NCBI RefSeq assembly: GCF_003334815.1
Contig: NZ_QOWO01000079.1
Direction: 5' to 3' (one strand)
Origin: Escherichia coli
Lineage (GTDB): Bacteria; Pseudomonadota; Gammaproteobacteria; Enterobacterales; Enterobacteriaceae
Length of the DNA stretch: 3,892 nt
Below are positions 96 through 662 of this stretch, one piece after another. Under the pieces are notes generated by a model. It was not told the origin of the DNA and did no database searches. It saw nothing but the letters and a program-made list of their open reading frames with translations. The position numbers were made by a program, and so were the translations under genes. Position 1 is the stretch's first letter; the number at the start of each line of letters is the position of its first letter.

Positions 96-137
96 GTTCA
101 CAGATAAAACACTCTCCAGGAAACCCGGGGCGGTTCA
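1..137 (+). mobile_element. Right-end fragment of an IS3-family insertion sequence (IS629/IS1203-like); the element body lies upstream of the window
   Basis: Frame 3 (nt 3-95) translates to RRLLERLGHTPPAEAEKAYYASIGNDDLAA-stop, which matches the conserved C-terminus of IS3-family OrfB as I recall it. It is followed by a terminal inverted repeat ending ...CCCGGGGCGGTTCA at nt 137, consistent with IS3-family TG...CA termini. The 137 nt are the exact reverse complement of 3756-3892. Specific IS name is from memory, not a search. Confidence 0.8.
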
Positions 138-662
138 GAGAGTATGCTGCTCGACAAATGCTTCCGGGGTGAGAGCAACCCGCCGTTCAGGTCGTTTGCC
201 ACCATGAAAGAGTTTTTCCGGATCACCATCTGCCAGTACAGGGGCGATAGCAGGGGACAACGAAGCAAAGATGTGTGGCAGGCGGGTAATATCTACTGGT
301 CTGCGGGTGAAACGACTTTGTCCCGGATGTTGATACCACTCCCACAAACACCAGAGTGTCACAGGTAAGAGGTACATCCACAGAATACCTATGGTCTGCT
401 CCATGACGTTAACCCACTGGCTATAGCTTATGTTGGCGGCGTTGTTACCGGTCATGGCAAGCAGGTTGTATCGTGGTGCTGCATAGTTATGAAATGGTCC
501 CCAGTCAACCAGTCCCCATAAGGTATGAAGAATCAGGCAGCTGGCGTAAACCACTTCCGGCAAGAATAACCATATAACGAATAGCAGCAGGATAAGAAGG
601 ACACCAACAGCGCCCCATATCTGCATAGGATCTTCTGCGACAGGCTGTCGATTGTAAGACAT
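135..662 (-). CDS. Hypothetical inner-membrane protein (two predicted TM helices), probably 3'-truncated by the IS3-family insertion
   Basis: 175-codon ORF with GGAG 8 nt upstream of the ATG at 662. Two hydrophobic stretches (IWGAVGVLLILLLFVIWLFL and TIGILWMYLLPVTLWCLW). Its stop codon TGA (135-137, minus strand) is the terminal three bases of the IS repeat, so the reading frame runs straight into the IS end. Confidence 0.55.
   Translation of the reverse strand: MSYNRQPVAEDPMQIWGAVGVLLILLLFVIWLFLPEVVYASCLILHTLWGLVDWGPFHNYAAPRYNLLAMTGNNAANISYSQWVNVMEQTIGILWMYLLPVTLWCLWEWYQHPGQSRFTRRPVDITRLPHIFASLSPAIAPVLADGDPEKLFHGGKRPERRVALTPEAFVEQHTL

Follow-up and report, generated by a model that had tools for sequence, protein, structure and literature searches.

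The conjugal transfer protein TrbA of IncI1 plasmids is distantly related to DotM (IcmP) of Legionella, with R64 TrbA and DotM sharing ca. 23% sequence identity in the alignment of Meir et al. 2018 (PMC5802825). DotM comprises (i) three predicted transmembrane helices, at residues 19-37, 43-58, and 90-113, and (ii) a cytoplasmic domain (PMC5802825). Intact TrbA (402 aa) is the plasmid counterpart of this protein, with an N-terminal membrane anchor followed by a C-terminal cytoplasmic DotM_C domain; the two systems also share a DotL/IcmO-like neighbor, which in the plasmids is TrbC (PMC5802825; PMC4288162), whereas they differ in that DotM/IcmP serves effector secretion and TrbA serves DNA conjugation. 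In the Dot/Icm system, DotM_C belongs to the type IVB coupling complex along with the DotL ATPase, which corresponds to TrbC in IncI1.

The requirement of TrbA for transfer has been described in two plasmid backgrounds. In an I-complex plasmid, the trbA::Cm mutation abolished the recovery of transconjugants, and trbA supplied in trans restored transfer (PMC10286972); a Tn-seq study of pESBL, in which TrbC is annotated as IcmO-like, assigned to each of TrbA, TrbB, and TrbC a probability of being required for transfer of 1.00 (PMC4288162). The arrangement trbA-pnd is the classic IncI1 layout (PMC10286972, its ref. 19).

The second system of relevance is the insertion sequence IS629, together with its isoform IS1203. 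IS629 generates target duplications of 3-4 bp, is highly active, and is a known inactivator of genes (PMC3271280). Gene disruptions by IS629/IS1203 in E. coli share a 1310-bp element of the IS3 family, TGAACCGCCCCGGG termini, and 3-4-bp duplications, and the case described here is an ordinary one of this kind.

Organization of the locus

The stretch of DNA analyzed, hereafter the window, comprises 3892 nt of Escherichia coli DNA and corresponds to the entire contig QOWO01000079.1 of assembly GCA_003334815.1; no mention of this assembly accession was found in the literature. The window displays the following features:

1-137, plus strand: right end (IRR, transposase-distal) of an IS1203/IS629-type element of the IS3 family, with the transposase stop at 93-95 and the terminus ...CCCGGGGCGGTTCA at 137
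135-137, minus strand: TGA stop codon of the truncated reading frame, provided by the outermost three bases of the IS terminal repeat
138-662, minus strand: truncated trbA (trbA'), 175 sense codons, from ATG at 662-660 to TGA at 137-135
671-674, minus strand: Shine-Dalgarno motif GGAG, 8 nt ahead of the trbA start codon, by direct reading of the sequence
799-956, plus strand: pnd (hok/sok-type) regulatory RNA region (Rfam RF01794 sok, 131.7 bits, E = 4.3e-31, full model length)
954-1106, plus strand: pndA, intact gene for a Hok/Gef-family type I toxin of 50 aa (NCBIfam Hok, E = 8.7e-19)
1116-1138: terminator-like hairpin after pndA
1178-1429, minus strand: conserved hypothetical protein of 83 aa from the IncI1 backbone (WP_001291965.1, 'Hp25' of pESBL), annotated in all matching plasmids and adjacent to pnd in all IncI1 relatives
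1485-3755, plus strand: 5' part of an IS66-family (ISCro1-like) element with NCBIfam matches to IS66 TnpA, TnpB, and transposase, followed by the second IS1203 end
3258-3758, plus strand: reading frame of a 166-aa fragment of the IS66 tnpC, with its stop at 3756-3758 supplied by the second IS1203 copy
3756-3892, minus strand: second IS1203/IS629-type right end, inverted, whose TGA at 3756-3758 also stops the tnpC fragment

Positions 1-137 and 3756-3892 form perfect inverted arms of 137 nt, the terminal bases of which, TGAACCGCCCCGGG, recur as the terminal repeat in full IS copies of 1310 bp, flanked by 3-4-bp target duplications, in a related plasmid. The arms are identical to the ends of complete 1310-bp copies in L003 and L002, annotated 'IS3-like element IS1203 family transposase', and the terminus lies 42 nt beyond the stop of the IS1203 family transposase CDS. 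Because both arms represent the same transposase-distal end, two IS copies in inverted orientation bracket a segment of 3.6 kb. Only 137 nt of each copy fall within the window, with the other end of the left copy located outside the contig; the equal length of the arms most likely reflects an assembler stop inside a repeat and not biology. Both reading frames that run into a junction, those of the truncated trbA and of the 166-aa IS66 fragment, are closed by an IS-terminal TGA.

Identity of the truncated reading frame

The product of the truncated frame is identical to residues 1-175 of ColIb-P9 TrbA (WP_000121273.1) at 175 of 175 positions, and the DNA matches intact trbA from the ATG over 525 of 525 nt, with zero substitutions. 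After base 525, intact trbA proceeds as ...CAT ACT CTC ATC ACC AAT ATG, whereas the sense strand of the truncated frame reads ...CAT ACT CTC / TGA ACC GCC CCG GGT TTC C, the slash marking the junction. The boundary between trbA and the IS is unambiguous, since the very next base differs (A in intact trbA, T in the IS). In the matching plasmids the gene underlying the frame, of 1209 nt and 402 aa, carries the annotation 'trbA: IncI1-type conjugal transfer protein TrbA'; the window retains 43.5% of this 402-codon gene of the R64 / ColIb-P9 type and, in place of the full length of ca. 402 aa with a stop of its own, ends at residue 175 on the TGA of the IS.

An earlier note on this DNA had described a 175-codon frame with a good ribosome-binding site that enters the IS end and borrows the IS-terminal TGA as its stop, the native protein being probably longer. 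The start codon, the GGAG motif, and the junction sequence agree with that description, and the native length is 402 residues, of which 175 are retained. The same note had placed the frame in a plasmid backbone beside a maintenance locus, which corresponds to the IncI1 trbA-pnd arrangement. Window positions 138-1484 are 100% identical to IncI1 plasmids, e.g., ColIb-P9 (NC_002122.1), in megablast comparisons in which the matches begin at 138; with positions 100-1500 as the query, matches spanning 80% or more of the region occur in 750 plasmids of PLSDB, so that a spurious frame devoid of conservation, which the note had also considered, is not what the sequence displays.

Altogether, the frame is almost certainly a pseudogene remnant comprising the first 175 codons of an IncI-complex trbA, ended by an IS1203/IS629-type element with an in-frame terminal TGA, and there is no evidence that contradicts this identification. 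The TrbA identity of the product is already known and nothing new, the exact 175-aa product carrying the TrbA name at NCBI (e.g., RCR41863.1).

The lost domain and the retained membrane region

Full-length TrbA matches (i) the Pfam family DotM_C (PF23127) at residues 185-358 (E = 2e-49); (ii) the NCBIfam model NF033890 (DotM_IcmP_IVB), DotM/IcmP of the type IVB coupling complex, at residues 21-359 (E = 5.6e-21), with 75 bits against an equivalog cutoff of 230 bits, and is thus a homologue and not an equivalog; and (iii) the DotM chains 6exe, 6exa, and 6sz9_B in the PDB (E = 2e-8 to 3e-7). The structures of the DotM soluble domain (PDB codes 6exe, 6exa, and 6exb) align to TrbA residues 182/185-358, and the full-length 6sz9_B aligns to residues 21-358. 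The truncation at residue 175 deletes the whole of DotM_C and leaves the membrane region with a short linker.

Both the DotM_C domain and the NF033890 match are absent from the 175-aa stub, for which searches of Pfam, NCBIfam, and the PDB sequences gave no match with a threshold as permissive as E ≤ 10. The stub lacks matches because the detectable homology lies entirely in the lost DotM_C domain (185-358), which explains why it had looked like an orphan; family searches with the stub did not yield the TrbA name, which was obtained through similarity at the DNA level and through the protein in its full length.

The earlier note had recognized two clear hydrophobic helices. Two hydrophobic blocks are indeed present in the Kyte-Doolittle profile of the stub, the first at residues ~14-52 (39 residues), broken by Pro35-Glu36, and the second, rich in tryptophan, at residues ~88-108; by analogy with DotM, the number of helices is probably three rather than two, the first block probably holding a pair of them. 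By position, the blocks parallel the helices predicted for DotM (PMC5802825).

Neighboring genes

The synteny of IncI1 plasmids is conserved exactly on the pnd side of trbA and, within the window, replaced by the IS on the trbB-trbC side. The window thus shares with R64 / ColIb-P9 residues 1-175 of TrbA, the upstream region of the gene, the divergent pnd module, and the neighboring 83-aa frame; unlike the window, where the IS end follows, these plasmids keep residues 176-402, with trbB and trbC next.

The intergenic region between trbA and the toxin gene, described as AT-rich in the earlier note, displays a GC fraction of 0.375 (positions 663-798) against 0.53 for the whole window, and no sigma-70 consensus promoter was detected in this region upstream of the truncated trbA. 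Beyond it, a Hok-family reading frame and a sok-type RNA region are both present, as in a pnd type I toxin-antitoxin module. The RF01794 match clearly exceeds its gathering score of 59, and the Hok match of pndA falls below the equivalog cutoff, the gene being labeled Hok/Gef or PndA in the matching plasmids. The RF01794 match lies on the same strand as pndA, and the antisense Sok/PndB RNA is expected on the opposite strand; the same-strand match may reflect how the Rfam model was constructed. The 83-aa frame that follows has no NCBIfam match and was non-essential in the pESBL Tn-seq study (PMC4288162).

Homology to ColIb-P9 stops at position 1484, and the IS66-family element starts at 1485 (GTAAGCG…). 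Its tnpA is intact; tnpB carries a +1 frameshift, with an extra base at ~2548-2549 relative to NZ_CP024481.1 that extends the frame to 169 aa, and tnpC carries a 17-bp deletion after 3272 relative to the same sequence, which splits the gene into frames of 229 and 166 aa.

Origin of the break

The ECOR 3 plasmid RCS85_pI (NZ_LT985321.1, E. coli) is 100% identical to window positions 138-3892, including the right IS junction, and carries the same broken IS66-family element. In this plasmid, trbA is intact (402 aa) and followed by trbB and trbC, and the same ancestral layout with an intact trbA occurs in two more assemblies (L026 and L027). RCS85_pI contains two complete 1310-bp IS copies, with TGAACCGCCCCGGG at both ends and target duplications of GCG and GGAG; the GCG duplication is the one read at the IS1203 junction in the IS66-family element. 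Since trbA is intact in an otherwise identical plasmid, the break appears as a recent, lineage-specific IS event, and we infer from these sequences a recent transposition of an IS copy into trbA, or a rearrangement of the DNA at this site, in a plasmid descended from the ECOR 3 type.

Of the two routes, simple insertion and rearrangement, the second is a tenable though tentative one. Here, the truncated trbA would result from an IS-mediated deletion or rearrangement that would have cost the genome the distal half of trbA and perhaps also trbB, trbC, and further parts of the transfer region, with the 3.6-kb segment left as an isolated backbone fragment between two inverted IS copies. The 3.9-kb contig begins and finishes with the same IS end, in line with such a fragment, and decayed IncI fragments rich in IS1203 are known, e.g., NZ_AP022179.1, in which pnd is kept and trbA is absent. 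Simple insertion predicts a further junction, in which the IS left end (…GGATTCCCGGGGCGGTTCA; …CAGGATTCCCGGGGCGGTTCA) is followed by CTC or TCTC and then ATCACCAATATGCAG… (ATCACCAATATGCAGCTCG), i.e., by trbA from base 523-526. The 3' remainder products predicted from such a junction (starting at M179 or, with a 3-bp duplication, at a TTG inside the IS) were not returned from the source assembly among the matches listed (best 10 of 23 contigs), but this absence weighs little, the look-ups having been made by exact product with the best 10 places listed. For elements of the IS3 family, simple insertion with duplication of 3-4 bp of the target is the usual mode, and it is the one followed by both copies in the ECOR 3 plasmid, which favors insertion over deletion.

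That the junction is an assembly artifact, namely a chimeric join at a repeat with trbA intact in the source strain, is very unlikely. Such an error would fit the existence of a complete plasmid with an intact trbA and 100% identity over the rest of the window, as well as the absence of the exact IS/trbA junction from PLSDB, 5,426 complete E. coli genomes, the GTDB representative genomes, and the JGI metagenomes. The join, however, falls exactly at the IS terminal base, as transposition produces and unlike a random chimera; the identical contig QOWO01000079.1 is recorded from two samples; and IS1203-type copies occur independently in the trbA of another plasmid, 10 bp away (L017), and in the trbB of a third (L002).

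Consequences of the truncation

Loss of DotM_C in its entirety would leave, if any product is made, only a membrane-anchored stub, and the plasmid segment could not provide the TrbA activity that conjugation requires. Downstream of an intact trbA, the genes trbB and trbC lie on the same strand, and the IS would separate them from the trbA promoter and upstream region. As trbA knockouts are unable to conjugate, the truncated trbA is, judging from its sequence, in all likelihood a dead remnant, maintained next to an addiction module, pnd (hok/sok-type), that is itself intact; the stub would have no function, and the segment would persist as neutral DNA adjoining an intact toxin-antitoxin module.

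An active role of the stub can be envisaged, in which it would be expressed from the untouched upstream region of trbA, insert into the membrane, and compete with full-length TrbA in the type IVB coupling complex, with a dominant-negative effect on the conjugation of co-resident or incoming IncI plasmids; this scenario is extremely improbable.

Read as a dead remnant, the truncated trbA implies that the source strain carries a decayed fragment of an IncI backbone, from which an essential transfer gene has been lost and in which the pnd addiction module has been kept. The trbA-pndC interval is an IncI1 pMLST locus, and the observation is of use in plasmid typing and in predicting that the element is not self-transmissible; beyond correct annotation, it has little significance.

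Related records in other assemblies

The exact 175-aa product is encoded on 22 contigs, and a recurrent breakpoint at codon 175 was considered and rejected. With the exception of the window's own contig (L008), the listed contigs end at base 524-527 of trbA; their alleles differ by synonymous changes, and the sequences that extend beyond base 525 read on into intact trbA (…CTCA, …CTCAT) and not into the IS. Eight of ten other TrbA prefix lengths are also on record, including 159, 166, 173, 174, 177, 178, and 182 aa, and an arbitrary TrbA suffix, starting at M179, is found on 23 contigs. Since prefixes of many lengths and an arbitrary suffix are on record alike, the apparent recurrence at codon 175 is a selection effect of the look-up by exact product and not a hot spot.

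The same records bear on the last alternative, that the 175 residues constitute a small membrane protein with a function of its own and not a remnant, which is already largely refuted and retains a practically negligible probability: although the start codon, the ribosome-binding site, and the whole upstream region are unchanged and a complete membrane anchor is encoded, homologues with a natural stop at this residue, the outcome that the earlier note had named as evidence against truncation, number zero, the other 175-aa records among the matches listed being contig-edge fragments of intact trbA, while TrbA fragments of numerous further lengths have been recorded as well, the stop belongs to foreign DNA, and the allele is confined to a single lineage.

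Two of the retrieved sequences contain IS1203-type insertions of their own. In the first (L017, Logan ERR10124339, positions 1-40), which is among the contigs with the M179 suffix, the IS left end is joined to trbA at sense base 536, 10 bp from the break in the window. This contig was considered as the missing half of the event in the window and rejected, as it shows 52 mismatches in 3675 nt against the ECOR 3 plasmid, to which the window is 100% identical; by its sequence, it is an independent IS1203-type insertion in another IncI plasmid. In the second (L002, NZ_CP019905.1), an independent IS1203/IS629-type insertion occupies positions 3729-5038, in trbB.

Finally, two minor features concern the edges of assembled contigs. 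In one Logan contig (L016, SRR30845143), positions 1-23 are a remnant of the Nextera mosaic-end adapter, AGATGTGTATAAGAGACAG, fused to trbA, i.e., adapter contamination. In a pair of contigs from a single Logan accession (L010 and L023, both ERR14141074), one ends at trbA base 525 and the other starts at base 535, and these ends probably represent a fork in the assembly graph, arising where trbA alleles with differences in bases 526-534 co-occur.
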